In this document: one piece after another, positions 2,835 to 26,109 of the stretch
Layout: every line of letters begins with the position of its first letter
Position numbering within the stretch: the first letter of the stretch is position 1
Assembly: GCF_900095195.1 (NCBI RefSeq)
Contig: NZ_LT606950.1
Span: 1,221,946 to 1,253,945, forward strand
DNA from: Polynucleobacter necessarius
Lineage (GTDB): Bacteria > Pseudomonadota > Gammaproteobacteria > Burkholderiales > Burkholderiaceae
DNA: 32,000 nucleotides
Direction of reading: 5' to 3'
The notes under the pieces: model-generated
The model's database searches: none
What the model was told of the DNA's origin: nothing
What the model saw: the letters and a program-made list of their open reading frames with translations, nothing else
Program-made: the position numbers and the translations under genes

Positions 2835-3134
2835 ATGGGTTACTTACAGGGCGACAAGCCAATCACAATTACTAAGCTCCCGCTATGCATGCTGAGGGTG
2901 AAAAAATTTCAATGCTAACGGCACATTCCAACTATCGGGATTGGTGCGGGCCCAGATTGCTCAGGCCAAGTATTGGTTCTGCAAGATATGCTGGGCATAA
3001 GCCCAGGCAGACCCCACAAGTTCGTGAAGAACTTTATGGAAAGTCACCAATCGATCGAGGCTGCAGTCAAAGCCTATGTGCGTGAGGTGAAATCCGGTAA
3101 GTTCCCCGGGCCTGAGCACGGCTTTGCAGGCTAA
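2835..3134 (+). pseudogene. panB: remnant of 3-methyl-2-oxobutanoate hydroxymethyltransferase (about 0.5 kb internal deletion plus a frameshift)
   Basis: The N-terminal piece MGYLQGDKPITITKLP (frame of 2835) continues as [14 protein letters not shown] in the frame of 2885, implying a 1-bp loss near 2879-2883. From about 2925 a third frame reads [69 protein letters not shown] (stop 3132-3134), which is the PanB C-terminus. The roughly 170 central codons are absent. Confidence 0.85.
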
Positions 3135-3146
3135 GACTTCCTAGCT

Positions 3147-4277
3147 CTAACTAAAGAAGCTTTTTACACCCTCAAACCAGCCTTTTTGTTGGGGACTGTG
3201 TTTATCACCTGCGGATTTGAGGCTGTCATCAAATTTCTGCAGTAATTGCTTCTGTTCATCCGTAAGCTTTACTGGGGTCTCGACCAGAACATGAACAAAG
3301 AGATCGCCCACTAAGGTTGAGCGCAACCCTTTAATTCCTTTGCTACGTAATCGGAAAGTTTTTCCGGTTTGCATTCCCTCTGGAATGGCGAGCTCTACTC
3401 GACCCGAGAGTGTAGGCACCTCGATTTCACCACCAATGGCAGCGGTTGCAAATGAGATGGGTAATTGCACATGCAGGTCACTGCCATCCCGCTCAAATAC
3501 TTTGTGAGGCTTTATGCGAACCTCAACATAAAGGTCGCCAGATGGTCCGCCATTAATGCCTGGTTCACCATTACCCACTGAGCGCACACGCATTCCATCA
3601 TCAATGCCCGCCGGGATTTTAATCTCTAGAGTTTTTTGCTCTTTGTGCTTACTGGTCCCATGACAAGTCTTGCAAGGCTTAGGAATGTATTCACCAGTTC
3701 CACGGCATTTTGGACAGGTCTGCTGCATGGAGAAAAAACCTTGCTGTACACGGACTTGACCATGACCATCGCAGGTTGAGCACCTTTCTGCTTTAGTACC
3801 CGGTTTTGCACCGGTTCCATGACAGGGCTTGCAATCGCTCCAGCTGGGCACCCGAATTTGCGTTGTGTAGCCCTCGGCTGCCTGTTCAAGCGTGATGTCC
3901 ATGCTGTAGCGAAGATCTGCGCCCTTATAGACTTGTGGGCCAGAATGACGACCCCCTTGACCAAAGATATCGCCAAAGATATCGCCAAAGGCGTCTGCAA
4001 ATCCACCGCCACCAAAGCCACCGCCGAAGCCACCACCCACTGAGGGATCCACACCAGCGTGACCGTATTGATCATAGGCAGCGCGCTTATTGGGATCGCT
4101 TAGCGTTTCGTAAGCTTCTTTTGCTTCTTTAAATTGAGCTTCGGCCGTTTTGCTATCAGGGTTGCGATCAGGGTGATACTTCATCGCCAGCTTACGATAG
4201 GCTTTTTTAAGCTCCAGATCGCTAGCACCTTTTGCTACCCCAAGTACTTCATAAAAATCGCGTTTACTTTTAGGCAC
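3147..4277 (-). CDS. dnaJ: molecular chaperone DnaJ
   Basis: 376 aa with a GTG start preceded by GAGAGGAA. It has a J-domain with HPDRNP, a G/F region, and four CxxCxG motifs ([32 protein letters not shown]). Confidence 0.95.
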
Positions 4278-4306: not shown

Positions 4307-4331
4307 ACAAGTCGGCACGAGGCCGACTTGT
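4307..4331 (-). other. perfect 10-bp stem / 5-nt loop between dnaK and dnaJ
   Basis: ACAAGTCGGC-acgag-GCCGACTTGT, with stems at 4307-4316 and 4322-4331. No U-tract follows on the transcribed (minus) strand, so it is not a canonical terminator. Confidence 0.6.
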
Positions 4332-4378
4332 TATTTAAGGATTTCTGAAAATACGTTAACGAATAGTTGAATTCAGAA

Positions 4379-6310
4379 TTACCTCTTGTCATCAATCTCT
4401 TTAAAGTCTGCATCAACGACGTCAGCATCTGGAGCGGCTTTTTGCTCGCCACCAGGAGCTGCCCCAGCAGCCGCACCAGCCTTGGCCTGTTCAGCAGCCA
4501 TAACTTTTTCGCCCAGCCTCTGACTTGCTTTACCCAAAGCTTCGGTCTTTGCCTCAATGACAGCCTTATCGCTGCCTTTGATGGCTTCATCCAACTCTTT
4601 GAGCGCTGCTTCAATCGCTTCTTTCTCAGCTGCTTCCAAGCTTGCGCCATGCTCTTCCAAAGCCTTCTTGGTCGAGTGAGCTAAGGCATCTGCTGTATTG
4701 CGAGCAGTTACCAACTCCAATACTTTCTTGTCTTCAGCAGCATTCGCCTCAGCATCTTTCACCATGCGTCGAATTTCTTCTTCAGTCAAACCAGAGTTTG
4801 CCTTGATGGTGATCTTGTTCTCTTTGCCAGTATTTTTGTCTTTTGCGGTGACATGCAAAATACCATTGGCATCGATATCAAAGGTCACTTCAATTTGCGG
4901 CAATCCACGTGGCACAGGAGCAATACCTTCGAGGTTAAATTCGCCGAGCAATTTGTTGGCTGCAGCCATCTCGCGCTCGCCTTGGTAGCACTTGATCGTT
5001 ACTGCTGGCTGGTTATCTTCTGCTGTTGAGTAAACCTGTGAATGCTTCGTTGGAATGGTGGTGTTCTTCGGAATCATCTTGGTCATTACGCCGCCAAGGG
5101 TCTCGATACCCAATGACAATGGAGTAACGTCCAAAAGCAACACGTCCTTACGATCGCCAGACAATACCGATCCCTGAATTGCGGCACCTACAGCTACTGC
5201 CTCATCTGGATTGACGTCTTTGCGTGGCTCTTTACCAAAGATCTCTTTGACCTTCTCCTGAACCGCAGGCATACGGGTTTGACCACCAACCAAAATCACG
5301 TCATCGATATCGGAAACATTAACACCAGCGTCTTTAATCGCAGTTAGGCAAGGGCCAGCAGTGCGGCTGATCAATTCTTCAACCAAAGACTCTAACTTGG
5401 CACGAGTGAGCTTGAGGTTCAAATGCTTAGGACCGCTAGCATCAGCAGTAACGTATGGCAAATTGATTTCCGTTTGCTGTGCCGAAGACAATTCGATCTT
5501 GGCTTTTTCGGCAGCATCTTTTAAACGCTGAAGCGCTAACACATCTTTGCTCAAATCAACGCCTTGCTCTTTCTTAAACTCAACAATGATCCAGTCGATA
5601 ATGCGCTGGTCAAAGTCTTCACCACCCAAGAAAGTATCGCCGTTGGTAGAGAGCACTTCAAACTGCTTCTCACCATCTACGTTAGCAATTTCGATGATGG
5701 AAACGTCGAATGTACCGCCACCTAAGTCATAGACAGCAATCTTACGATCGGCTTTGTCTTGCTTATCTAGACCGAATGCCAATGCGGCTGCGGTAGGCTC
5801 GTTAATGATGCGCTTCACATCCAAACCGGCAATACGACCAGCATCCTTTGTAGCTTGGCGTTGGCTATCGTTAAAGTAAGCAGGAACGGTAATAACCGCC
5901 TCAGTAACTTCTTCGCCAAGGTAATCTTCCGCAGTCTTTTTCATTTTGCGCAAAATTTCAGCAGACACTTGCTGTGGCGCCATTTTCTTGTCGCGCGCCT
6001 CAACCCAAGCATCACCATTGTCTGCTTGAACAATTGCGTAAGGCATCAAACCAATATCTTTCTGCACTTCAGGATCGGTAAATTTACGACCCATCAAACG
6101 CTTCACAGCGTAGATCGTGTTTTTAGGATTGGTAACTGACTGACGTTTTGCAGGAGCACCAACCAATACCTCACCATCTTCAACGTATGCAACGATGGAT
6201 GGGGTTGTACGAGTACCTTCTGCATTCTCAATGACTTTCGGTGCATTGCTTTCTACGACTGAAACACATGAATTGGTTGTTCCTAAGTCGATTCCAATAA
6301 TCTTTCCCAT
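4379..6310 (-). CDS. dnaK: molecular chaperone DnaK (Hsp70)
   Basis: 643 aa with the Hsp70 signatures [21 protein letters not shown] and [16 protein letters not shown] Shine-Dalgarno sequence lies just upstream of the ATG. Confidence 0.97.
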
Positions 6311-6371
6311 AATGACTCCAAAAAATGAAATTACTTTGTTGTACTTCTAATGAAGTATTCCGATAGACCCT

Positions 6372-6399
6372 AGATGGGGTCTAAACAGGGAAATTCAAG
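6372..6399 (-). promoter_or_regulatory. sigma-32 (RpoH) type heat-shock promoter of dnaK
   Basis: The minus strand reads CTTGAAt-N13-CCCCATCT. The -35 is the reverse complement of 6394-6399 and the -10 is the reverse complement of 6372-6379. The E. coli-type consensus is CTTGAAA-N13/14-CCCCATNT. It lies about 60 nt upstream of the dnaK ATG. Confidence 0.75.
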
Positions 6400-6410
6400 G
6401 GGAGAAATGC

Positions 6411-6468: not shown

Positions 6469-7038
6469 CTATTTTGGGGCGCTGACGGTGACAAGGGCGG
6501 GTCTGAGTACGCGATCCGCAACGGTATACCCCCGCTGCAAGACAGACACTACCGTATTTGGCTCCCGCTCAGACGACACGGACGCAATTGCCTGGTGGTG
6601 ATGGGGATCAAACTTATCGCCCACGGCAGGATTAATTTCAGTCATACGGCCTTTTTCAAAAGCAGACAACAATTGCTTCAAGGTAATCTCTAAGCCCTCT
6701 TTGAAAGCCTTGGCATCACCCGCATCCGTATTCAACGCAGCATAAAGACTATCCGTTACAGGGACGAGATGCTCGGCAAAACTTTCAATAGCAAATTTAT
6801 GCGCTTTAGCAATATCTTCAACAGCGCGACGACGAATATTTTCGCCCTCTGCCTTGGCGCGCAAAAAGTTATCCTGCAAGTCAGACGCCTTCTGATTCAG
6901 TTCGGCAATTTCCTGTTCAGGAGTCTTGGTAGTTGGAGTTTCTGTTGCCGCATCCGCTGCTGGTTCAACTGCTGAACTCTCCTGCTCAGGAGATGAATGT
7001 TGATTTTCTTGTGTCATAGACAGTGATTCACTTTTCAA
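6469..7038 (-). CDS. grpE: nucleotide exchange factor GrpE
   Basis: 189-aa ORF with an acidic N-terminus followed by GrpE core similarity ([16 protein letters not shown]...DPHHHQAI...GY...RVLRPALV). The start is uncertain: TTG at 7038 or ATG at 7017. Confidence 0.9.
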
Positions 7039-7060: not shown

Positions 7061-7088
7061 AAGTGGGGTCAGTTTAGTCAATTTCAAG
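7061..7088 (-). promoter_or_regulatory. sigma-32 type heat-shock promoter of grpE, overlapping the hemH stop codon
   Basis: The minus strand reads CTTGAAA-N13-CCCCACTT. The -35 is the reverse complement of 7082-7088 and the -10 is the reverse complement of 7061-7068. The spacing is the same as in the dnaK promoter. Confidence 0.7.
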
Positions 7089-8175
7089 ACTGACTCTTTG
7101 CGAATTCGGCTCGCTCATTGGGTTTTGCAAGCTCTTCTGGCGATTCCGTACCTAGAGACCAACCCAACAAATGCTGATGAGCAATATCACTTAAAGCCTC
7201 ACTCCATTTGTGGTTGCTATTCAGACAAGGGATGTAGCGATAGTCCTTACCGCCTTTTTCTAAAAAGGATTTTCTTGCTTCCATGGCAATTTCTTCCAAG
7301 GTCTCCAAGCAATCTGCTGGAAAGCCTGGGCAAAAAATATCGATCCGCTGACAACCGTCTTTTGCTAATTTTTCGATGGTTGGGGCGGTATAAGGCTTTA
7401 ACCACTCCGCCTTACCAAAGCGAGATTGAAAGGTCACTATGTATTGACCTGGCTCCAAACTCAGCGCCTCGCCCAGCAAGCGACCTGTCTTTAAACACTC
7501 GCAGTGGTATGGGTCACCCTTTAGCAAATTGCGTTTTGGCAAACCATGAAAGGACATCACAAAACGATCGCCCCTCGCAAAATCTGGATAGCCATCTTTT
7601 TCCCAATTGCTCAATACTTGATCGCGTAAGGCTGTGATGTACGCTGGATTGTCGTGGTAATGTTTTACCAAACGCAACTCAGGTTGATCACGCCAATTAC
7701 TTAATACCCGAAATGCCTCATCAAAGCTAGAGGCAGTCGTTGTTGCCGAATATTGTGGGTATAAGGGCAGCAACAGTAGACGCTCCATACCCTGCGCTTT
7801 TAAGCCCTCCAATACTTCTTGAGTTGAAGGCTTGCCGTAACGCATTGCCAAATCGACCAAAACAACATGCCCCTCATTGGTAAATTTTTCACCCAACTCT
7901 TTTGCTTGCAAACGCGAGTAATGCATCAAAGGTGAACCGAGTTGCGGCAACCAAATGGAGGCGTATTTTTTAGCGGATGCACTACTGCGAATCGGCAAAA
8001 TAATGCCATTCAGAATAAACCACCAAACAAAGCGCGGAATTTCTACAACCCGAGGGTCAGACAAAAATTCTTTTAGATACGACCGAACTGCTTTTGCAGT
8101 AGGCGCAGAAGGTGTGCCTAAATTTAATAACAACACAGCTGTTTTAGGAGCGCGTAGATGTGGATTTTGATTCAA
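7084..8175 (-). CDS. hemH: ferrochelatase
   Basis: 363-aa uninterrupted ORF with the ferrochelatase pattern (LLLNLGTP..., MRYGKPS, LPLYPQYS, SFHG.P). It occupies the hrcA-hemH-grpE-dnaK context common in Burkholderiales. Confidence 0.9.
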   Translation of the reverse strand: MNQNPHLRAPKTAVLLLNLGTPSAPTAKAVRSYLKEFLSDPRVVEIPRFVWWFILNGIILPIRSSASAKKYASIWLPQLGSPLMHYSRLQAKELGEKFTNEGHVVLVDLAMRYGKPSTQEVLEGLKAQGMERLLLLPLYPQYSATTTASSFDEAFRVLSNWRDQPELRLVKHYHDNPAYITALRDQVLSNWEKDGYPDFARGDRFVMSFHGLPKRNLLKGDPYHCECLKTGRLLGEALSLEPGQYIVTFQSRFGKAEWLKPYTAPTIEKLAKDGCQRIDIFCPGFPADCLETLEEIAMEARKSFLEKGGKDYRYIPCLNSNHKWSEALSDIAHQHLLGWSLGTESPEELAKPNERAEFAKSQS

Positions 8176-8198: not shown

Positions 8199-9212
8199 TT
8201 ATGAACTTAACGCGCCTGATAACAACTTCGAGGTAATGTCGTCAATCGGAATGACACGATCATAGGCCATACGTGTTGGGCCAATACACCTAAGGCCCGA
8301 CGACTTGGCCATCAACGCTATAGGGGGCGCTGATAACAGCCAAATCCTCATAAGGCAGAAGATCACTCTTTCCACCAATAAAAATTTGAATACCATCTGC
8401 ATGACTAGATACATCGAGTAATTGCATCAACACAGACTTTTGCTCTAAAAGGTCAAACATCTTACGAAGTTTGTCGAGATTTGAACTAAGATCGCCAACA
8501 TTCAATGGGCGACGCTCACCTGATAGAACCATATCGCCACCACTCAAATCGTAGTTTGCAACGCCACTTTGCAAAGCGAGAGCCATGAGCCCAGAAATAT
8601 TGGCTCGCAAACTATCCAAATCTGACTTGAGATGCATGCGCACCTGCTCAAAACTTTTTCCAGCAAACTGCGTATTGATGTAATTACCAGCCTCGATGAG
8701 TTGACTTGGTGTGTAGTCTTGATCGGTAGGCAAAATGCGGTTTTGCACATCGCCCTCTGGCGTCACCATGATGAGCAAAATCTTGCCCTCGCCAAGACGA
8801 AGAAACTCAATATGTTTAAAAACCTGGGCTCGTTTGGACGTCATCACGACGCCAGCAAAATGCGTAAGATTGGACAAAATTTGTGCAGCGGAATTTAAAA
8901 CCCGTTGCGGGGAATCCGGCAATAAGCCCTTTTCCACCTCCCGAGCAGCAATTTCCTCCAGCGGACGTACTGTCACCATGGTGTCCACAAAGAGACGATA
9001 GGGTAGGAATTCGGCCTGCAGAGGTATGGGGGCTAGTCACCAAACCCATCTCCTCTAGGTCAGTCATCACATTTCGGATGGTGGCTGCAGACAGATCTAA
9101 ACCCGAAAAGCGCGATAAAGTACGCGAGCCAATGGGCTGCCACTCCTCGATATAGCGCTCGATGATAGCGCTCGATGTGGGTTTTGAGTAAGGCGCGGGA
9201 ACGTTCATCCAT
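8199..9212 (-). pseudogene. hrcA: heat-inducible transcription repressor HrcA, inactivated at three sites
   Basis: The ancestral start ATG is at 9212 and gives [17 protein letters not shown] 13-bp tandem duplication (9152-9177) shifts the frame. Next comes [50 protein letters not shown], followed by a second shift at about 9000. Then [15 protein letters not shown]...YSVDGQVVG is followed by a third lesion at 8283-8298 (the sequence passes through ..LGV.. in the third frame). The C-terminus IGPTRMAYDRVIPIDDITSKLLSGALSS* follows, with the stop at 8199-8201. Confidence 0.9.
9152..9177 (-). repeat. perfect 13-bp tandem duplication inside the hrcA 5' region
   Basis: The plus strand reads ATAGCGCTCGATG twice (9152-9164 and 9165-9177). 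Removing one copy restores the canonical HrcA N-terminus [30 protein letters not shown] from the ATG at 9212. Confidence 0.95.
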
Positions 9213-9249: not shown

Positions 9250-10155
9250 ATGTTAAGCTTATCCCCAAATTCTTCCAAGAAGCCCTTTAAGCGGGTTGCG
9301 CTTGTCGGTAAATTTCATGCCGATGGGATCGAAGAGCATTTAAAAGACCTAGCCAAGCTAGTGGCTGGCCTAGGATGTGAGATCTTCATTGAATCTGAAA
9401 CAGCTACCCACCTGGGATTAAGTGGCTACCCAATAAAAACCCCTCAAGATTTTGCTGGGGCAATTGATTTAGTCGTCGTGTTGGGCGGAGACGGCACTAT
9501 GCTCGGGATCGCGCGCCAATTAGCAGGCAGCAATGTTCCCCTAGTCGGAATCAATATGGGTCGTCTCGGGTACATGACCGATATTCCCTTTCAGTCGGTA
9601 AAAGATACATTACCCAAAATTATTGCTGGCGAATATGAAGCAGACACCAGGACGTTGCTTGAAGGTGTTGTGCTACGCGACAAGCAAGAAATTAATCGTG
9701 CACTAGCCCTAAATGATGTGGTGGTTAATCGCTCTGGCATTTCTGGAATGGTGGAATTAGCTGTTCATGTGAATGGCTCCTTTATGTATATCCAACGATC
9801 AGATGGCCTGATCATCTCAACGCCAACCGGCTCTACCGCTTATGCATTGTCTGCCGGCGGACCAATTCTGCATCCGCATGTAGCGGGAATCTTGCTTGCG
9901 CCAATTGCCCCGCACTCTTTATCCAATCGTCCGATTGTCCTGCCTCAAGACAGCCTTACCGAGATTGAAATGGTCAATGGGCTTGATGTGATTGTTAATT
10001 TTGATATGCAATCCCAAACCAATTTGCAAAGCGGTGACCGAATTCAAGTGCGCCAATCTGATAAAACGATTGCTCTCTTGCATCCAAGCAACCACAGTGA
10101 CTACAAAACTTTGCGTGAGAAATTACACTGGAACGAATACCCATCGACATTTTGA
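9250..10155 (+). CDS. nadK: NAD(+) kinase
   Basis: The ORF was trimmed to the ATG at 9250 (MLSLSPNSSKKPFKRVALVGKF...) because the upstream extension overlaps hrcA. It carries the GGDGTML motif (VVVLGGDGTMLG) and the conserved ISTPTGSTAY motif. Confidence 0.9.
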   Translation: MLSLSPNSSKKPFKRVALVGKFHADGIEEHLKDLAKLVAGLGCEIFIESETATHLGLSGYPIKTPQDFAGAIDLVVVLGGDGTMLGIARQLAGSNVPLVGINMGRLGYMTDIPFQSVKDTLPKIIAGEYEADTRTLLEGVVLRDKQEINRALALNDVVVNRSGISGMVELAVHVNGSFMYIQRSDGLIISTPTGSTAYALSAGGPILHPHVAGILLAPIAPHSLSNRPIVLPQDSLTEIEMVNGLDVIVNFDMQSQTNLQSGDRIQVRQSDKTIALLHPSNHSDYKTLREKLHWNEYPSTF

Positions 10156-11857: not shown

Positions 11858-14668
11858 TTAAACGCTGGAAGGCGCTTTAAAGATTTCTTGCCAAAAATGG
11901 AGAACACACTTTCTTGCGGCAATAAGCTCCGGCTCAACCGTCATACCAATACGCGTTTTTTCTGCCCCATCTAGACGTAAGCGGTGCTGACGCGCTCGGA
12001 GTAAACGATAGGCATCCCCCACTTCTATGGCAGCACTTTGTTGAATCAAACCAACCTCCCCTGCAATGCGCAAAAGAGCTATGTTTCCGAGGTTGCCAAT
12101 CAATTGCGGACATCGATGCGAATATGCCAGGACCAAAAATTGAACAATGAACTCAATGTCCACCATGCCACCCGCGTCGTGTTTTAAATCAAAATCCCCG
12201 CTGGTATTCGGATGACCTTCATGCACCTTGCGGCGCATATTAAGAATCTCTGCGCGCAAATGCTCGATATCGCGTTTTTGGCTAAGAACCTCTGATCGGA
12301 CCGCATCAAATTCACTGCCCACAGATAAACTACCCGCAGAAAATCGTGCGCGCGTTAAAGCCTGGTGCTCCCATACCCAAGCGGCATTGTCACCCTTGCG
12401 CATTTGATATTTTTTAAATGCATCAGTATTGGTAACCAAGAAGCCTGCAGAGCCATTCGGGCGTAAGCGCGTATCGATTTCAAACAAGCTGCCCGTTGAT
12501 GTAAACGCTGTCAGCCAATTAATCATTCTTTTAGCCAACAAGCCATAAATTTCCTGAGCATCGAAATCATTTTCTCTGGCTTGATATAAAAATACCAAAT
12601 CCAAATCTGAGGCATAGCCAAGCTCTTTACCGCCTAACTTGCCGTAAGCAATGACTGCAAATTTAGGGGCAATTTTGGGTGGTAGGTCAAATTTTTTTAC
12701 AACCGCTGGCCAGACACGCTCAATGGTTGTTTCCAAAATAAAATCCGCTAGTGCGGATAAATGATCGCTCACCTTTTCGACCGATAAAGCCTGATCTACT
12801 CCAATCCCTAGATCGGTCAGCAAAGTAATAAATGTTTCCGTGTGATGCGTAACACGCAAAATGTCCATAGCTTGCTCAGAACCACCCCCATCAGCCATGA
12901 CATCATCTAACCGCAGATTTACATTTGCTTTTACTTCCCGCCAATACTCTTCAGGCCTTTCAATTAGCACCTTTTCTGTATGCGAATTAAGTAAATAATC
13001 GAGCAAATGAGGATGCGCCGTCAGATATTGTGCGCCCCATTGAGACGCTTTTAACAGGGCTAAAACATTAATCAGAGCTTGAGGATATTCCGCCAATATC
13101 GAAAGATACGCACTACGTCTCGCGATAGCCTCGAGCAAATTAAAAAAACGTAATAACGTCTGATCTGAACCTGGGTTATCCCCCCGTTTTGCTGCTAATC
13201 TTTCTGCTGCACTTCGCATCAGGCTATTGAATATGGAGCGACTCTTTTCTGGAAGAAGTCTTTCTTTGGGGCTAGCAAGCCAAGCTTGCCAACGCAGCAA
13301 AGATTGCGGGAATACCGCACCATCTGGCTCCCAACTCTGATCTGGTGGACTAAGATCAAGCCTAGTTTCATCATTTAGTAAAAATGCTTTTTCAAACAAG
13401 CGTGCAACACTATTTTGATGATGTTCGAGCTCAGCTAGAAAGCTATTTTCGTCAGAAAAGCCCATCGTCGTCGCTAGACGCGAACGTGCAAGGTCGTCGT
13501 CGAACAAGTAATGCGTTTGCTGATCATCCCAGACTTGGATACGATGTTCTAGACGCCGCAAAAATACATACGCCGCCTCCAACGCAACCACATCTTCTTT
13601 GGGCAATATGCCGCGTTGCTGAACAAGGGTAAGAACTTCGAGAGTTGGACGAACCCGAAAGCGAGGATCCGTTCCGCCGCGCATTAATTGAAACATTTGC
13701 GCCAAGAACTCAATCTCACGAATGCCGCCGCGCCCCAATTTGATATCCCGCGAACGACCTTGATACGCAGCAGAACGCTTTTCTGCCTCTCGCTGAATTT
13801 GTGCGTGTAAATCACGAATTGAGGCAATAACACCATAGTCCAAATGTCTACGATAAACAAAGGGACGAATGAGCTGATCGAGCGCTTTCTCACAATGTTC
13901 ATAATCTGCAGACCCTGGTGACGAGGCAATCAATCTTCCCTTAATCCACGCATAACGCTCCCACTCTCTGCCTTGCACCAACAAATATTCTTCGAGCATG
14001 TCTAGGCTACAGACCAGGGGACCCGAGTCTCCATTTGGTCTTAAACGCATATCTACACGAAATACAAAACCGTTTTCATCATGCTCAGATAAAAGCTTAA
14101 TAAGGCGCTTACCCATGCGGGTAAACCACTCATGATTCGAAAGGCTCTTGGGACCGCCTTGCGTATCCCCCTCGTGCTCATACAAAAAAATCAGATCGAT
14201 ATCAGACGATAAATTAAGCTCATAACCACCAAGCTTGCCCATACCCACAACCATCAGCGGCATTTCAGAATTCGTGGTCTGACTCCAAGGGAGCCCAAAG
14301 CGCTCCTGCAAATCCTTGCGAATAAATGCGATGCAATCATTGACGGCAAACTGAGCAAAGTGGCTAAGGCCTTGAGTGACCTCATTTAGGCTCGCCAGGC
14401 CATTGAGATCCCGGAAGGCCAACCACAGCATTAAACGCTGACGCGTAAGACGTAACCGCGCCATAAACTCCGCTTCATCGGCGCCACTTAGACCATCTAA
14501 CGCAACTGTTTTTAAAAGTCGCTCGATTCCATTTGCGTCAATTTTTTCGCATCCATACGTCCTCAACCACTCACGCCATTGCGGCTGAGCTTGAAGCCAA
14601 CGTCTGGCATATTCAGAGTGCTGCTCTAAAAAAGCAATTTGCCTTGACAAATCATCCATCCCCCCCAT
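11858..14668 (-). CDS. glnE: bifunctional glutamine synthetase adenylyltransferase / adenylyl-removing enzyme
   Basis: The ORF was trimmed from 15073 to the ATG at 14668 (MGGMDDLSRQIAFLEQHSEYARRWL), giving 936 aa. It has two nucleotidyltransferase modules (GMGKLGGYELNLSSDIDLIFLY and YGKLGGKELGYASDLDLVFLY). The untrimmed extension would overlap the divergent gene. Confidence 0.9.
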   Translation of the reverse strand: MGGMDDLSRQIAFLEQHSEYARRWLQAQPQWREWLRTYGCEKIDANGIERLLKTVALDGLSGADEAEFMARLRLTRQRLMLWLAFRDLNGLASLNEVTQGLSHFAQFAVNDCIAFIRKDLQERFGLPWSQTTNSEMPLMVVGMGKLGGYELNLSSDIDLIFLYEHEGDTQGGPKSLSNHEWFTRMGKRLIKLLSEHDENGFVFRVDMRLRPNGDSGPLVCSLDMLEEYLLVQGREWERYAWIKGRLIASSPGSADYEHCEKALDQLIRPFVYRRHLDYGVIASIRDLHAQIQREAEKRSAAYQGRSRDIKLGRGGIREIEFLAQMFQLMRGGTDPRFRVRPTLEVLTLVQQRGILPKEDVVALEAAYVFLRRLEHRIQVWDDQQTHYLFDDDLARSRLATTMGFSDENSFLAELEHHQNSVARLFEKAFLLNDETRLDLSPPDQSWEPDGAVFPQSLLRWQAWLASPKERLLPEKSRSIFNSLMRSAAERLAAKRGDNPGSDQTLLRFFNLLEAIARRSAYLSILAEYPQALINVLALLKASQWGAQYLTAHPHLLDYLLNSHTEKVLIERPEEYWREVKANVNLRLDDVMADGGGSEQAMDILRVTHHTETFITLLTDLGIGVDQALSVEKVSDHLSALADFILETTIERVWPAVVKKFDLPPKIAPKFAVIAYGKLGGKELGYASDLDLVFLYQARENDFDAQEIYGLLAKRMINWLTAFTSTGSLFEIDTRLRPNGSAGFLVTNTDAFKKYQMRKGDNAAWVWEHQALTRARFSAGSLSVGSEFDAVRSEVLSQKRDIEHLRAEILNMRRKVHEGHPNTSGDFDLKHDAGGMVDIEFIVQFLVLAYSHRCPQLIGNLGNIALLRIAGEVGLIQQSAAIEVGDAYRLLRARQHRLRLDGAEKTRIGMTVEPELIAARKCVLHFWQEIFKAPSSV

Positions 14669-14738
14669 CTTAATACCGACTAAATCCTTGGATCCAGATG
14701 CTTGGCGCCTGCATTGAGGCTGACGGATAATAGAGGCC

Positions 14739-18857: not shown

Positions 18858-19672
18858 ATGAGCAATTCCGCAACGCTAAAGATCGCGTCGATACAAATGG
18901 TCTCCTCTTCAGACCTACAGGAAAACTTAACTACAGCAGGTAGGCTTATTGATGCGGCAGCTAAAGATGGCGCAAGAGTTATTGCCCTTCCTGAGTACTT
19001 TTGCATAATGGGACTGAAAGACACGGATAAGGTCGATATTCGAGAGCCATTTGGTATTGGCCCCATACAAGACCAATTAGCTAATTTTGCAAAAGATAAT
19101 TCCATTTACTTGATTGCAGGAACTATTCCGCTGGAAATGCAAGAGCCTGGAAAAGTACTTAATTCCATACTGGCTTTTAATCCTGATGGTCAGCAGATCG
19201 GATGCTATGACAAGATTCATTTGTTTGGCTTTCAAACCAAGACCGAACGCTATCAGGAATCGGAAACGATAGAAGCAGGAAATCATCCAAGCGTTCTCAA
19301 GATTTTCCATGACAACTGCGGATGGACTTTTGGTCTCAGCCTTTGCTATGACCTCCGGCTCCCTGAACTCTATCGTGCCATGGGTATCGTCGATTGCCAC
19401 ATTATTCCAGCAGCCTTTACCTACACTACCGGCAAGGCGCATTGGGAAATTCTATTGCGCGCCCGCGCCATTGAAAATCAATGCTATGTCCTGTCATCGG
19501 CCCAAGGGGGGTCCCAAAAATCAACGCCGTACTTGGGGGCAGAGCCTCCTAGTTGACCCCTGTAGCAGATTTACCTGAAGGAGAGGGTTTTATTTCAGGT
19601 GTTTTAAGCAAAGAAAAAATAAACGAGGTACGCTCTCAGTTACCAGCCCTTGCTCACCGAAAGCTCTACTGA
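18858..19672 (+). pseudogene. carbon-nitrogen hydrolase (nitrilase superfamily), two frameshifts near the 3' end
   Basis: The Glu-Lys-Cys catalytic context is present (ALPEYF, YDKIHLF, GLSLCYDLRLPELY). After ...SSAQGG the homologous sequence moves to the next frame (PKNQRRTWGQSLLVDP) at the G6 run 19506-19511, consistent with a 1-bp gain. It moves again at about 19561 to VADLPEGEGFISGVLSKEKINEVRSQLPALAHRKLY* (stop 19670-19672). Confidence 0.85.
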
Positions 19673-19677
19673 ATCAC

Positions 19678-21166
19678 ATGACTGCACCCGAAGCATTATT
19701 TCCAGCGAATTGGGCAAAAGCCAAAAAACAAGCAGACCTCATCAAAGTAGCCAAATCGATTCTCCTAGAGCCGACTGGCTTATCTGAACAAGATCTTCAT
19801 CGTACTTTTGGAACTCTTTTTACTCACCATCTTGGTGATGCCGATCTTTATTTTCAACACACGCGTAGCGAGAGCTGGAGCCTTGAAGAGGGAATAGTCA
19901 AATCTGGCAGCTTCAGCATTAATCAAGGCGTTGGGGTACGAGCAATTTATAGGGATAAACAGCGTTTGCATACTCTGATGAAATCAACCTAGAAGCACTA
20001 AGCAAGGCTGCTAAAGCTACACGAGTAATCGGCCCTCAAGGCGGTAAACACGCTGTAGCAAAGAAAATATTTAGCCCGGCTTCCAACAAGCTGTACTCCG
20101 ACCTTAACCCACTTGACTCCTTACAACCCAAGGAAAAGATTGCCCTCCTTGAGGGTATTGAGCGTCGTGCAAAGGCACGCGATCCGCGCATTATTCAGGT
20201 CATGGCAAGTCTAGCTGGTGAGTTTGATGTCGTATTGGTCGCCAGAGCCAATGGCTTACTCGCGGCAGATATTCGTCCGCTAGTACGAGTTTCTGTTCAC
20301 GTCATCGCCGAACAAAATGGGCGCCGTGAATCGGGCTCATCGGGTAGTGGCGCACGCCATGACTATCTTTACTTCGATGTAGATCTGATTAATCGCTATG
20401 TTGATGAAGCCGTGGATGGGTGCACTCATTAATTTAGAGTCGCGCCCTGCGCCCGCTGGTCCGATGACGGTGGTAATGGGGTCCGGCTGGCCAGGCGTTC
20501 TTTTGCACGAAGCAGTTGGCCACGGACTTGAAGGCGACTTTAATAGCAAAGGATCTTCTGCATTTGCAGGTCGCATTGGCGAACGCGTTGCTGCCAAAGG
20601 AGTCACAGTAGTCGATGATGGCACCTTATCTGGACGCAGAGGCTCCCTCAATATTGATGATGAAGGCACTCCAACGCAATGCACCACGTTGATTGAGGAC
20701 GGGATCTTAAAAGGCTACATTCAGGATAGCTTGAATGCCAGATTCATGAAAATGCCACTTACTGGGAACGGTCGTCGTGAAAGCTTTGCCTCTCTACCAA
20801 TGCTACGCATGACCAACACATACATGCTTGCCGGCAAAGACGACCCCCAAGAAATAGTAGCAAGTATTAAGCGGGGTTTATATGCAGTCAACTTTGGTGG
20901 CGGTCAGGTCGATATCACCAGCGGTAAATTTGTCTTCTCTGCATCAGAGGCATATTGGGTAGAAAACGAAAAAATCCAATACCCCGTCAAAGGCGCCACT
21001 ATTATCGGCAGTGGTCCAGAGTCCTTAAAGCAGGTATCGATGATCGGTAACGACCTGAAATTGGATGGCGGCGTTGGTGTTTGCGGTAAGGAAGGTCAAA
21101 GTGTGCCAGTCGGGGTTGGGCAGCCAAACACTGAAGATTGATAGCCTTACCGTGGGCGCCGCCTAA
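19678..21166 (+). pseudogene. tldD: metalloprotease TldD, three single-base frameshifts
   Basis: Piece 1 ends ...GDADLYFQHTRSESWSLEEGIVKSGSFSINQGVGVRAIYRDK, with a 1-bp loss in the A-run 19957-19959. Piece 2 runs TAFAYSDEINLEAL...RYVDEAVD, with a 1-bp gain in GGGT at 20418-20421. Piece 3 runs [41 protein letters not shown]...VGQP, with a 1-bp gain in the A-run 21126-21128. Piece 4 is [12 protein letters not shown] (stop 21164-21166). Confidence 0.9.
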
Positions 21167-22935: not shown

Positions 22936-24453
22936 ATGGCTAAAATGAATGTCATGAATATGGTGACCACACCCCCCGATATTGCAGCAATTGGCGCCCT
23001 TCAGTCCAAACTGGTATCGGCTTTGCGCCCGATCCTTCCAGGGCATGCCTTACTCTGGGAGCCGGAGGACACGATTCCGTATGAATGTGATGGTCTTGCG
23101 GCATATCGTCGGATGCCTCTAGCGGTTGCCCTTCCAGAGACAGAAGAACAAGTCGCCAAGATTTTGAGAGTTTGTTTTGAGATGCAAATACCGGTTGTCC
23201 CACGCGGATCCAGAACGGGCTTATCGGGTGGTGCCATGCCAATTTCTCAAGGTCTAGTGCTATCACTCGCCAAACTCAAAAAAATTATCAGTATTGTTCC
23301 CTTTACGAGAACAGCCGTTGTGCAACCAGGTGTTCGCAATCTAGCTATTTCTGAAGCAGTCGCTCACCTCGGTTTGTATTACGCCCCAGATCCTTCTTCT
23401 CAAATTGCGTGCTCGATTGGCGGAAATGTTAATGAAAACTCTGGTGGCGTGCACTGTTTAAAGTATGGCTTGACCTTGCATAACGTTTTGCGAGTACGTG
23501 GCGTACTTATGAACGGCGATGTTGTCGAATTTGGCAGTCTAGCGCCAGACTCACCAGGCTTAGATTTAATGGCCATCATGATGGGCAGTGAAGGCATGTT
23601 GGCAGTGGTTACTGAAGTTACTGTGAAATTAGTTGCCAAGCCAAAACTAGCCCGCGTCATTATGGCCAACTTTGACGATATTGAAAAAGGTGGAAATGCT
23701 GTTGCCGCCATCATTGCCGCAGGCATTATTCCTGCGGGCCTGGAGATGATGGATAAAGCCGCCACTCGCGCCGTTGAAGAATTCGTACACGCTGGGTATG
23801 ACCTTGATGCTGCAGCCATGTTGCCTGGTTGTGAATCGGACGGCACACCAGAAGAGGTTGCCGAAGAAATAGAACGCATGACCAAGGTGCTCGAACAATC
23901 TGGCGCAAGCGGTATTCAGATTTCTAAAGATGAGACTGAGCGCTTAAAATTTTGGAGCGGCCGCAAAAACGCTTTCCCTGCTGCAGGTCGCTTAGCGCCA
24001 GATTACTACTGCATGGATGGAACGATTCCCCGCCGACACATTGCAACTCTGTTAAAGCGTATTCAAGGTATGGAAGAAAAATACGGTTTGGGATGTTTGA
24101 ATGTATTTCATGCAGGGGATGGCAATATGCATCCGCTCATTTTATTTAATGGCGCCGATCAGGAAGAATGGCATCGCGCGGAAGAATTCGGCACTGAAAT
24201 TTTGGAAGCCTGTGTTGAACTCGGCGGCGCCATCACTGGCGAACATGGCGTTGGAATCGAAAAAATCAACTCCATATGCGTGCAATTTGGAGGGGGTGAA
24301 CGGGAATCCTTTTGGGGTGTCAAAGCCGAATTTGATCCGGAGAAATTGCTTAACCCTGACAAGGCCACCCCAACCTTAAACCGTTGCGCAGAATATGGGC
24401 GCATGCGGATCAGTGGCGGGAAGTTACCCCATCCTGAATTGGAGCGTTTTTAA
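22936..24453 (+). CDS. glcD: glycolate oxidase subunit GlcD (FAD-linked oxidase), apparently intact
   Basis: 505 aa with a PCMH-type FAD-binding domain (VVPRGSRTGLSGGA). The C-terminal region reads FWSGRKNAFPAAGRLAPDYYCMDGTIPRR and NVFHAGDGNMHPLILF, and the protein ends LPHPELERF like GlcD. The start codon choice (22936 or a nearby downstream ATG) is uncertain. Confidence 0.88.
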   Translation: MAKMNVMNMVTTPPDIAAIGALQSKLVSALRPILPGHALLWEPEDTIPYECDGLAAYRRMPLAVALPETEEQVAKILRVCFEMQIPVVPRGSRTGLSGGAMPISQGLVLSLAKLKKIISIVPFTRTAVVQPGVRNLAISEAVAHLGLYYAPDPSSQIACSIGGNVNENSGGVHCLKYGLTLHNVLRVRGVLMNGDVVEFGSLAPDSPGLDLMAIMMGSEGMLAVVTEVTVKLVAKPKLARVIMANFDDIEKGGNAVAAIIAAGIIPAGLEMMDKAATRAVEEFVHAGYDLDAAAMLPGCESDGTPEEVAEEIERMTKVLEQSGASGIQISKDETERLKFWSGRKNAFPAAGRLAPDYYCMDGTIPRRHIATLLKRIQGMEEKYGLGCLNVFHAGDGNMHPLILFNGADQEEWHRAEEFGTEILEACVELGGAITGEHGVGIEKINSICVQFGGGERESFWGVKAEFDPEKLLNPDKATPTLNRCAEYGRMRISGGKLPHPELERF

Positions 24454-25160
24454 TGGCCGCAACCAGTTCAACTATTGAAGGATTTCGTGAGCAGATTCTT
24501 AATGCCGCTAAGAATAAAGTGCCCCTTTCTATTGAGGGTGGTGGCACTAAATCTTGGTATGGAAATCCCAACTCCTTCACAAAACTAGATACCCGCGCAT
24601 ACCTTGGTATTTTGGAATACCAACCTGAAGAGTTGGTGATCACCGCTTGTGCGGGCACTCCGCTAAAAGAGATCGAAACGGCTCTTGCAGAAAAAAATCA
24701 GGTGTTAGCTTTTGAACCGCCTCACTTTGGTGAGCATGCTACGTTTGGCGGCGCCATTGCCTCAGGATTGGCGGGTCCTGGTCGAATTAGTGTTGGCAAT
24801 TTTCGAGACTTTGTTTTAGGCACTCGTATTCTGGATGGCAAGGGACAGGACCTTTCCTTTGGCGGCAAAGTAATGAAGAACGTTGCCGGCTATGATGTAT
24901 CGCGTTTGATACCAGGATCGATGGGAACCTTATCCCTTCTCCTAGAAGCATCCGTCAAGGTATTGCCCAAGCCTGCCGCGACTTCAACACTACGTTGTCA
25001 AATTTCTCAGGCAAAAGCTTTGGAAATTCTGAACACTTGGGCTGGTCAACCTCTGCCACTATCCGCAAGCTGCTGGATTGGGGATGACCACAAAGATGGT
25101 GAGCTCACCTTTCGTCTTTCTGGCGCAGCAGCTGCAGTAAAGGCTGCGATTCCATTGATG
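24453..25160 (+). pseudogene. glcE: glycolate oxidase subunit GlcE, 3' third deleted
   Basis: The ATG overlaps the glcD stop (TAATG). The GlcE-like sequence runs through ...GGKVMKNVAGYDVSRLIPGSMGTLSLLLEASVKVLPKP...RLSGAAAAVKAAIPLM. The expected distal part (FW..LREQ...GGHAT...FDP..IFNPGRM) is missing in every frame. The junction coordinate is approximate. Confidence 0.75.
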
Positions 25161-25161
25161 A

Positions 25162-26109
25162 GCTCGCTGGTTAATGCACACGAAATTTCCCTTGAAGGAA
25201 GGCTTAACAAATCCAGCATCATTCAATTCAGCGATGGCATTGGGACGTTTTGTGCGCCCTCTGCTGCCAAGCAGCATTCAGCGCAAGATTCCGGTCACAG
25301 AGTAAAGCGTTATCGCAATCAACCGATCCATACGCTCGACCTCAAGCGCAACATACTCGCAAGATGCTGATTTTGGAAGGATGCGTTCAACCTGGCATGC
25401 TGCCAAATATCAATTCCGTTACTGCGCGTGTGTTGGATGCTCTTAAGATTCAACTCATCAGCGCTCCCAACGCCACCTGTTGCGGTGCATTGCGTTATCA
25501 CCTCAATGACCAAGATGGGGGTTTAAGCAATGCCAAACAAAATATTGATGCTTGGTGGCCACTAGTTGAACAAGGGGTTGGAGTTATTGTGATGACAGCT
25601 TCTAGCTGCGGGGTCATGGTGAAGGACTACGGTCACTTATTAGCAAATGACCCAATTTATGCCCATAAAGCAAAAAAAATTTCTGAATTAACCAAAGATA
25701 TTGCAGAAATTTTGCCAACGTTGCAAAGCAAACTAGTAGATCTCATTGGTGCAGATCAGAAACCTGGAGTGGTTTGCCACCCGCCTTGCACCCTGCAGCA
25801 TAGCCAACAAATTCTGGGCAAAGTTGAAGGTCTCTTGATAAGCTTAGGCATTAGCGTACGACTCTGTAACGATAACCATCTTTGCTGTGGCTCAGCTGGC
25901 ACATACTCCGTTACTCAACCTGAGCTCTCCGAGCGCAGCTTCGTATGAACAAGCTGACCAACTTAAATACAGCCTGCAAAGAATCTGGAGCAGAAGTTAT
26001 TGTTTCGGGAAATATTGGGTGCATTACCCATCTGCAACAAGACGAGAATCCAGTATTGCACTGGATTGAAATCGTCGATCAACTCATTCAAAAGCCCAAC
26101 AATACTTAA
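25162..26109 (+). pseudogene. glcF: glycolate oxidase Fe-S subunit GlcF, 5' third deleted plus two frameshifts
   Basis: GlcF similarity begins mid-protein in the frame of 25162 (ARWLMHTKFPLKEGLTNPASFNSAMALGRFVRPLLPSSIQRKIPVTE*). It shifts at about 25303 to KALSQ...RKMLILEGCVQPGMLPNINSVTARVLDAL...CCGA...HLCCGSAGTYSVTQPELSE. It shifts again at about 25935 (1-bp loss) to QLRMNKLTNLNTACKESGAEVIVSGNIGCITHLQQDENPVLHWIEIVDQLIQKPNNT* (stop 26107-26109). No CxxCxxCxxxCP ferredoxin motif is present in any frame. Confidence 0.8.

Follow-up and report, generated by a model that had tools for sequence, protein, structure and literature searches.

Lesions in hrcA

The DNA analysed in this study (hereafter, the window) is a 32 kb stretch of the genome of Polynucleobacter necessarius, a species that lives as an obligate endosymbiont in the ciliate Euplotes, and has a G+C content of about 46%. 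Alongside the chaperone genes dnaK, dnaJ and grpE, it carries the remains of hrcA, the gene for the heat-shock repressor HrcA, which is an irreversibly broken pseudogene of recent origin. The 1014 bases between the ATG (9210–9212) and the TAA (8199–8201) of hrcA are spread over three frames. Both codons share one frame, yet the reading from the ATG is cut off by a stop at codon 51. The lesions were defined by alignment of the window with six free-living relatives, a sister strain that is ~99% identical, two other P. necessarius genomes and the free-living locus L001. The alignment revealed four insertions or deletions (indels) at three sites, and since their net change is +3 bp, the first and the last frames of hrcA coincide. 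The features of the gene are as follows:

8199..9212, minus strand: hrcA pseudogene (ATG at 9212, TAA at 8199; recognised by six-frame translation, TIGR00331, tblastn and synteny)
9152..9177: perfect 13-bp tandem duplication (ATAGCGCTCGATG twice on the plus strand) at HrcA codon 17, shifting the frame by +1
9060..9062, minus strand: first in-frame stop from the native ATG, codon 51
9000..9001: junction of an 8-bp deletion (ACCCCTAG on the plus strand of the sister strain), shifting the frame
8295..8296: junction of a 1-bp deletion, GGG^CC (sister strain, GGGACCTTAGGTGTAATTGG; window, GGGCCTTAGGTGTATTGG), creating an in-frame TAG
8285..8286: junction of a second 1-bp deletion, GT^ATT, after which the original frame is regained for the last ~30 codons

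The two copies of the 13-bp sequence occupy positions 9152–9164 and 9165–9177, and 0.03 such matches are expected by chance. The duplication is of the slippage type and represents an insertion; like the other three indels, it is missing from the six free-living relatives, from the sister strain, and from the two other P. necessarius genomes. The 8-bp deletion takes out the Pro-Arg-Gly codons of the conserved RIPTPRGYR (SAGRIPTPRGYR) winged-helix motif. An earlier interpretation, made from the letters alone (the sequence-only reading), had described hrcA as destroyed by a perfect 13-bp duplication at 9152–9177 plus two further lesions. The loss of the gene and the exact location of both copies were confirmed, and the frame is indeed broken at ~9000 and at 8283–8298, while the latter site turned out to comprise two separate 1-bp deletions, so that the indels number four. 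The same reading had taken the source for an obligate-endosymbiont-type organism, and this was borne out by the proteins of the window: DnaK (WP_114663033), DnaJ (WP_114663031), RecN (WP_114663041), YhdP (WP_114663043) and FolK (WP_114663029) are exact NCBI entries of P. necessarius.

With the four indels undone, hrcA encodes a protein of 336 amino acids (aa), which matches the TIGR00331 equivalog with 269.1 bits (cut-off, 197.2) over model positions 1–335 of 338; the match holds only for this restored sequence. A tblastn search of the window with the intact HrcA of L001 gave a match divided over three frames. Residues 2–202 of the restored protein align to HrcA of Thermotoga maritima (PDB 1STZ; E-value, 9e-18), a distant homologue whose C-terminal half has no sequence-level alignment to it. 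According to the alignment with 1STZ, the first helix is the site of the duplication, and the conserved SAGRIPTxxGxR wing, which belongs to the DNA-binding domain, is that of the 8-bp deletion. No uninterrupted frame covering the winged-helix, GAF-like and dimerisation domains of HrcA was found in the window, the largest fragment (232 aa) being devoid of the DNA-binding domain. The locus is a pseudogene of the HrcA gene and not a functional member of the family.

HrcA acting at the controlling inverted repeat of chaperone expression (CIRCE) constitutes the class I heat-shock regulation that is widespread in bacteria, including Betaproteobacteria. The restored protein resembles that of the Bacillus subtilis paradigm in being an HrcA equivalog with a conserved winged-helix motif; the window genome differs in that its repressor gene is dead.

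Sister Strain and Timing of the Loss

The sister strain was reached via a RecN that is 99% identical to that of the window, encoded on the metagenome contig L084 from ENA. The Logan contigs L207 and L208 are 100% identical to L084 in the overlap, and all three represent one strain. The Logan contigs that carry its folK stop short of hrcA. It was seen in three independent public sequencing runs (L083/L084 in ENA ERZ27248707; L208–L210, L222 and L223 in Logan SRR32119647, SRR8208349 and SRR14234079). One ENA assembly holds the sister strain alongside a strain with DnaK identical to that of LT615228, a genome labelled P. necessarius.

A comparison of the window with the sister strain over 21.4 kb gave 221 substitutions and 25 indels. 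One of the indels is a 3-bp in-frame change in yhdP, and the others are found in pseudogenes, in a partly decayed carbon–nitrogen (CN) hydrolase region, and in intergenic DNA, with none in genes that are intact in both strains. Five of the 25 fall in hrcA, four being specific to the window and one to the sister strain, in which a 1-bp deletion shortens the product to 305 aa. Since the sister strain has none of the four lesions of the window and has a deletion of its own, the hrcA frame was intact in the common ancestor, and each lineage broke the gene independently after the strain split.

Among the 12 hrcA substitutions that separate the two strains, eight are non-synonymous, four per lineage, and all of these affect residues conserved in outgroups. 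The pN/pS of hrcA is 0.61, compared to 0.30 in ten intact neighbours, a difference that is based on 12 substitutions only (Fisher p = 0.37). The window and the sister strain also share the radical replacements L12H, D203N, L234P and E280K, located at positions that are invariant in 58 free-living sequences. Of the invariant HrcA residues, 7 of 213 are replaced versus 25 of 1382 in the comparison set (p = 0.18). The indel density of hrcA (5 per kb) resembles that of pseudogenes whose breakage goes back to the ancestor. Taken together, the shared radical replacements, the substitution pattern and the pseudogene-like indel density suggest a relaxation of constraint on hrcA that dates back to the common ancestor of both strains.

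CIRCE Operator of groESL in the Genus

No CIRCE was detected within the window with up to three mismatches allowed, nor was it found in 85 hrcA-dnaK loci; thus, the dnaK cluster of the genus is not CIRCE-controlled. This differs from the situation in B. subtilis, where the hrcA-grpE-dnaK-dnaJ operon is under the control of CIRCE, while dnaK, grpE and hrcA of Polynucleobacter are without it.

An unbiased metagenome scan with the 5' coding sequence of groES returned 120 contigs, among which those of low G+C content encode a GroES identical to that of named Polynucleobacter species. The operator was examined in these 19 metagenome contigs and in 10 more free-living sequences with the same GroES (nine NCBI assemblies and one ENA scaffold). 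In each of the 29 sequences from free-living Polynucleobacter, a CIRCE variant, TCAGCACTC-N9-GAGTGCTAA, is located approximately 135 nucleotides upstream of groES, and no other HrcA operator was found. Both arms are invariant, although neutral sites between the lineages are saturated. Compared to the CIRCE consensus, TTAGCACTC-N9-GAGTGCTAA, the operator of the genus, a 9-N9-9 inverted repeat, is one base off, with the left arm being TCAGCACTC instead of TTAGCACTC.

The full pattern of the groESL promoter is CTTGAAAT-N13/14-GACCTATATAA-TCAGCACTC-N9-GAGTGCTAA, that is, a near-consensus promoter directly followed by the operator. The promoter is strong and looks to be of a hybrid sigma-70/sigma-32 type, and the predicted operator overlaps its −10 region/start site. 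Because the CIRCE variant adjoins the groESL promoter in 29 out of 29 sequences and is missing from the dnaK cluster, groESL is the predicted target of HrcA in the genus, and binding of the repressor would occlude the promoter. The view of the sequence-only reading that HrcA acts at CIRCE at groESL is therefore upheld for Polynucleobacter. The groESL promoter region of the genus is strikingly conserved (L206, 3400–3684; L208, 1–133; L211–L220, 800–1000), and the operator is followed by a conserved 5' leader that ends with TTAGTTAACACTTACTAACATAGGAGA. Judging from synteny, ~15 kb separate the right end of the window from groESL of the window genome, which would follow queA-tgt-yajC-secDF-waaA-purB-gst-mnmA-pntAB; in the genome LT606946, the distance between hrcA and groESL is ~38 kb.

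Operator and HrcA in Symbiont Lineages

In the sister strain, groES and groEL are represented by intact open reading frames (ORFs) of 96 aa and 550 aa. The available operator sequence begins three bases into the left arm, the boundary of the locus being 133 nucleotides before the groES ATG; its visible part, GAACTC-CCAATGCGC-GAGTGCTAA, carries a C-to-A change in the left-arm core. In LT606946, the left arm is intact and the right arm is changed to GAGGGCTAA. LT606946 shares 94.8% nucleotide identity with a free-living metagenome-assembled genome versus 76.8% with the window, and being closer to the free-living genome, it is a symbiont lineage independent of that of the window. The operator is thus mutated in two out of two symbionts versus none of the 29 free-living sequences (Fisher p = 0.002). 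As to whether the operator is retained or decayed, a point raised by the sequence-only reading, decay applies to the sister strain and LT606946 and retention to all of the free-living sequences. These operator mutations lend modest support to a dismantling of the circuit as a whole.

The hrcA frame of LT606946 is open (340 aa). Its product has 7 of 219 invariant residues replaced, compared to 7 of 1382 in six neighbouring proteins (p = 0.001). In the hrcA region of LT615228, no broken genes were found.

Gene Order and Neighbouring Genes

Free-living Polynucleobacter genomes are collinear with the window over ~19 kb at 75–80% nucleotide identity, and collinear alignments were obtained with L001, L035 and L052. 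The order recN-ppnK-hrcA-hemH-grpE-dnaK-dnaJ is shared with L001, and the same order was called in LT615228, LT606946 and the sister strain. In 80 of 80 related loci, hrcA is present in the context ppnK-hrcA-hemH-grpE. The genes next to hrcA in the window are the following:

9250..10155, plus strand: ppnK (NAD kinase), divergent neighbour, intact
7084..8175, minus strand: hemH (ferrochelatase), intact (TIGR00109, 308 bits; full-length compared to L001)
6469..7017, minus strand: grpE, intact, 182 aa, ATG at 7017 (full length compared to orthologues)
4379..6310, minus strand: dnaK, intact, 643 aa, WP_114663033 (full length compared to orthologues)
3147..4277, minus strand: dnaJ, intact, 376 aa (full length compared to orthologues)

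The uninterrupted state of dnaK, dnaJ and grpE, as described earlier from the letters alone, was confirmed by these comparisons. Besides the chaperone genes, hemH, ppnK, recN, glnE and yhdP are of full length. The promoter of hrcA must sit within or beside the 5' end of the divergent ppnK.

Sigma-32-Like Promoters and the dnaK–dnaJ Hairpin

The window was scanned for the sigma-32 consensus CTTGAAA-N13/14-CCCCATnT; the promoters obtained in this way are putative, as they represent matches to the consensus only. The scan and inspection of the dnaK–dnaJ spacer yielded the following features:

7061..7088, minus strand: putative sigma-32-like promoter of grpE, CTTGAAA-N13-CCCCACTT, one mismatch, conserved in Polynucleobacter
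6372..6399, minus strand: putative sigma-32-like promoter of dnaK, CTTGAAT-N13-CCCCATCT, one mismatch, conserved in Polynucleobacter
4307..4332, minus strand: GC-rich hairpin between dnaK and dnaJ, AACAAGTCGGCCTCGTGCCGACTTGT

Upstream of dnaJ, no match to the consensus was found within three mismatches, so the retention of sigma-32 promoters proposed for the three chaperone genes by the sequence-only reading applies to dnaK and grpE and not to dnaJ. Given that dnaJ has no sigma-32-like motif of its own and is separated from dnaK by the hairpin, it is probably read through from dnaK. The hairpin is perfectly conserved in eight alignable free-living loci, LT615228, the sister strain and the window, and may function as an attenuator or mark a processing site; an Rfam scan of the window revealed no RNA family, the hairpin included.

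The 5' leader of dnaK (6311–6400, minus strand) is ~30 nucleotides shorter in the window and the sister strain than in LT615228 and L001, and the −10-like element of the dnaK promoter in the sister strain is TCCCATCT in place of CCCCATCT. Another sigma-32-like motif (14643–14670, plus strand; CTTGACA-N13-CCCCATCT, one mismatch) is located in the short glnE/yhdP intergenic region, upstream of a 1370-aa YhdP-family gene, and two 1-bp indels between the window and the sister strain are found nearby (14660 and 14685).

Other Pseudogenes in the Window

At least four pseudogenes, namely hrcA, pcnB, panB and tldD, are present within the 32 kb of the window. Besides hrcA, the decayed or partly decayed genes are:

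837–2237: pcnB (poly(A) polymerase) pseudogene, frameshifted, in three frames, broken in the sister strain too
2835–3131: panB (ketopantoate hydroxymethyltransferase) remnant, with an extra 515-bp deletion compared to the sister strain
18858–19556: CN-hydrolase ORF, 232 aa, kept in the window
19678–21141: tldD/pmbA metallopeptidase, divided into three or more ORFs, each with one Pfam domain, with four indels compared to the sister strain

The lesion in pcnB is older than the strain split, since pcnB of the sister strain is also broken. As for panB, the sister strain keeps two fragments (123 aa and 103 aa). Decay of the CN-hydrolase region takes a separate course in each strain, the sister strain having lost 298 bp there (at window position 19133) and showing other indels as well. 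Glycolate-oxidase subunits encoded at 24453–25948 are short and mutually overlapping (GlcE-like, 305 aa; GlcF-like, 232 aa, with the CCG domain only), and these ORFs may be further pseudogenes.

Genome-wide pseudogenisation in Euplotes-symbiotic P. necessarius has reportedly been described by Boscaro et al. in PNAS in 2013 and in Nat Ecol Evol in 2017. A literature search, in which those two papers did not figure, returned no paper naming hrcA in Polynucleobacter and no relevant paper on hrcA in connection with endosymbiont pseudogenes. The pattern of four or more pseudogenes observed in the window fits the counts for the symbiont STIR1, in which 231–460 pseudogenes have been reported (PMC4285135). 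With several pseudogenes in the window, the loss of hrcA belongs to a decay that affects the genome as a whole.

Alternative Explanations

Selection for more GroEL is possible. According to such an explanation, damage to hrcA and to its operator was itself selected, with constitutive overproduction of GroESL buffering a destabilised proteome, as proposed for Buchnera, a bacterium under drift whose abundant chaperonin is believed to compensate for protein destabilisation (PMC4285135). The independent breakage of hrcA in two sister strains, the operator core mutations in two independent symbiont lineages and in none of the 29 free-living sequences, and the intact groES and groEL of the sister strain would all be in line with adaptive loss. 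Repeated loss is, however, equally expected under relaxed constraint; the indel density of hrcA is comparable to that of neutral pseudogenes (tldD, the CN-hydrolase region and panB), many unrelated genes are broken within the same 32 kb, the HrcA of LT615228 is fully conserved, and none of the selection tests (pN/pS and omega, both underpowered) reached significance. On balance, adaptive loss seems rather unlikely, and relaxed selection with drift is the simplest cause in view of the neighbouring pseudogenes and their comparable indel densities.

A paralogous hrcA, intact and located outside the window, might conceivably maintain repression of the regulon and have made the broken copy redundant. 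Such compensation is supported by no observation and is very unlikely, given that hrcA occupies a conserved single-copy context in all 80 related loci, and that the operator of the sister strain is decaying as well, which would not be expected with a working repressor.

The probability that hrcA is really intact and the lesions are artefacts of sequencing or assembly is close to negligible. Although base-calling errors might in principle account for the two 1-bp deletions, a perfect 13-bp duplication and an 8-bp deletion are untypical as errors, the frame-breaking indels between the window and the sister strain are confined to pseudogenes and intergenic DNA and spare the intact neighbours, and invariant residues of HrcA have undergone radical substitution in the window lineage.

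Residual activity of an HrcA fragment is just as improbable. There are two ORFs to be considered, one of 232 aa (8290–8988), covering the central domains, and another of 130 aa, which holds most of the helix-turn-helix part:

8816–9208, minus strand: 130-aa ORF, ATG at 9208, reading HrcA residues 13–66 in the correct frame via the +1 shift of the duplication

In the 130-aa ORF, the 8-bp deletion destroys the wing motif, and the 64 residues that follow are unrelated, whereas the 232-aa ORF is without the entire DNA-binding domain and the conserved C-terminus. No one product combines DNA binding with the dimerisation and GAF-like domains of 1STZ, and the sister strain, being without the duplication, has no such arrangement of ORFs. 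A functional split gene was rejected for lack of a product uniting the DNA-binding and dimerisation parts, and a reversible phase-variation switch operating via the 13-bp repeat was rejected on account of the three further lesions, which make hrcA unrecoverable.

Proposed Loss of HrcA Control and Its Meaning

Based on the above, hrcA of Euplotes-symbiotic P. necessarius has been inactivated recently and irreversibly, and the best explanation (probability, about 0.75) is that this took place within the genome-wide pseudogenisation typical of a young symbiont. It is plausible that the window genome has thereby lost HrcA control over groESL. Without HrcA, the groESL promoter would be freed from repression and from the feedback exerted through titration by GroEL, and this strong promoter would then drive groESL constitutively, with sigma-32 control alone remaining. 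By contrast, dnaK and grpE would never have been under CIRCE control and appear to keep their sigma-32-type promoters. Relaxed selection on heat-shock regulation inside the host, combined with drift, would be the most likely cause.

Several observations weigh against this reading. Overall, hrcA of LT606946 is under strong purifying selection (omega, 0.08 versus 0.05 pooled; p = 0.21). In LT615228, HrcA is perfectly conserved, with none of the 219 invariant residues changed, and decay of the circuit is therefore not universal. The excess of pN/pS in hrcA over its neighbours is not significant (p = 0.37). The symbiont operators seen are two only, that of the sister strain being partial, and single point mutations may not abolish the binding of HrcA. 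For the window genome, we infer both the state of the groESL operator and the lack of a second hrcA.

More tentatively, dismantling of the HrcA–CIRCE brake on groESL, by damage to the repressor, the operator or both, may be a repeated early step as free-living Polynucleobacter become Euplotes endosymbionts; this generalisation is possible but less likely than not. An HrcA/CIRCE system is not known from Buchnera and its enterobacterial relatives, and for this reason, any route to high GroEL levels in them would differ. The constitutive GroEL ("symbionin") of Buchnera and other insect endosymbionts resembles the outcome predicted here, as in both cases the bacteria are obligately intracellular and subject to drift, with the difference that GroEL overproduction in P. 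necessarius is a prediction only. If the brake is indeed dismantled repeatedly, Euplotes symbionts would arrive at constitutive chaperonin expression by a route other than that of insect symbionts, and in a case where individual mutations can still be put in order.

Taken alone, hrcA is one more pseudogene in a symbiont with hundreds of them known. What gives its loss added value is that the regulator has a single well-defined target in the genus, that the same circuit is damaged in the sister strain by an independent frameshift and an operator mutation, and that the independent lineage LT606946 shows an operator mutation together with accelerated change of HrcA. Since very close pairs of symbiotic and free-living strains exist in Polynucleobacter, the hypothesis of chaperonin derepression is directly testable in this genus.

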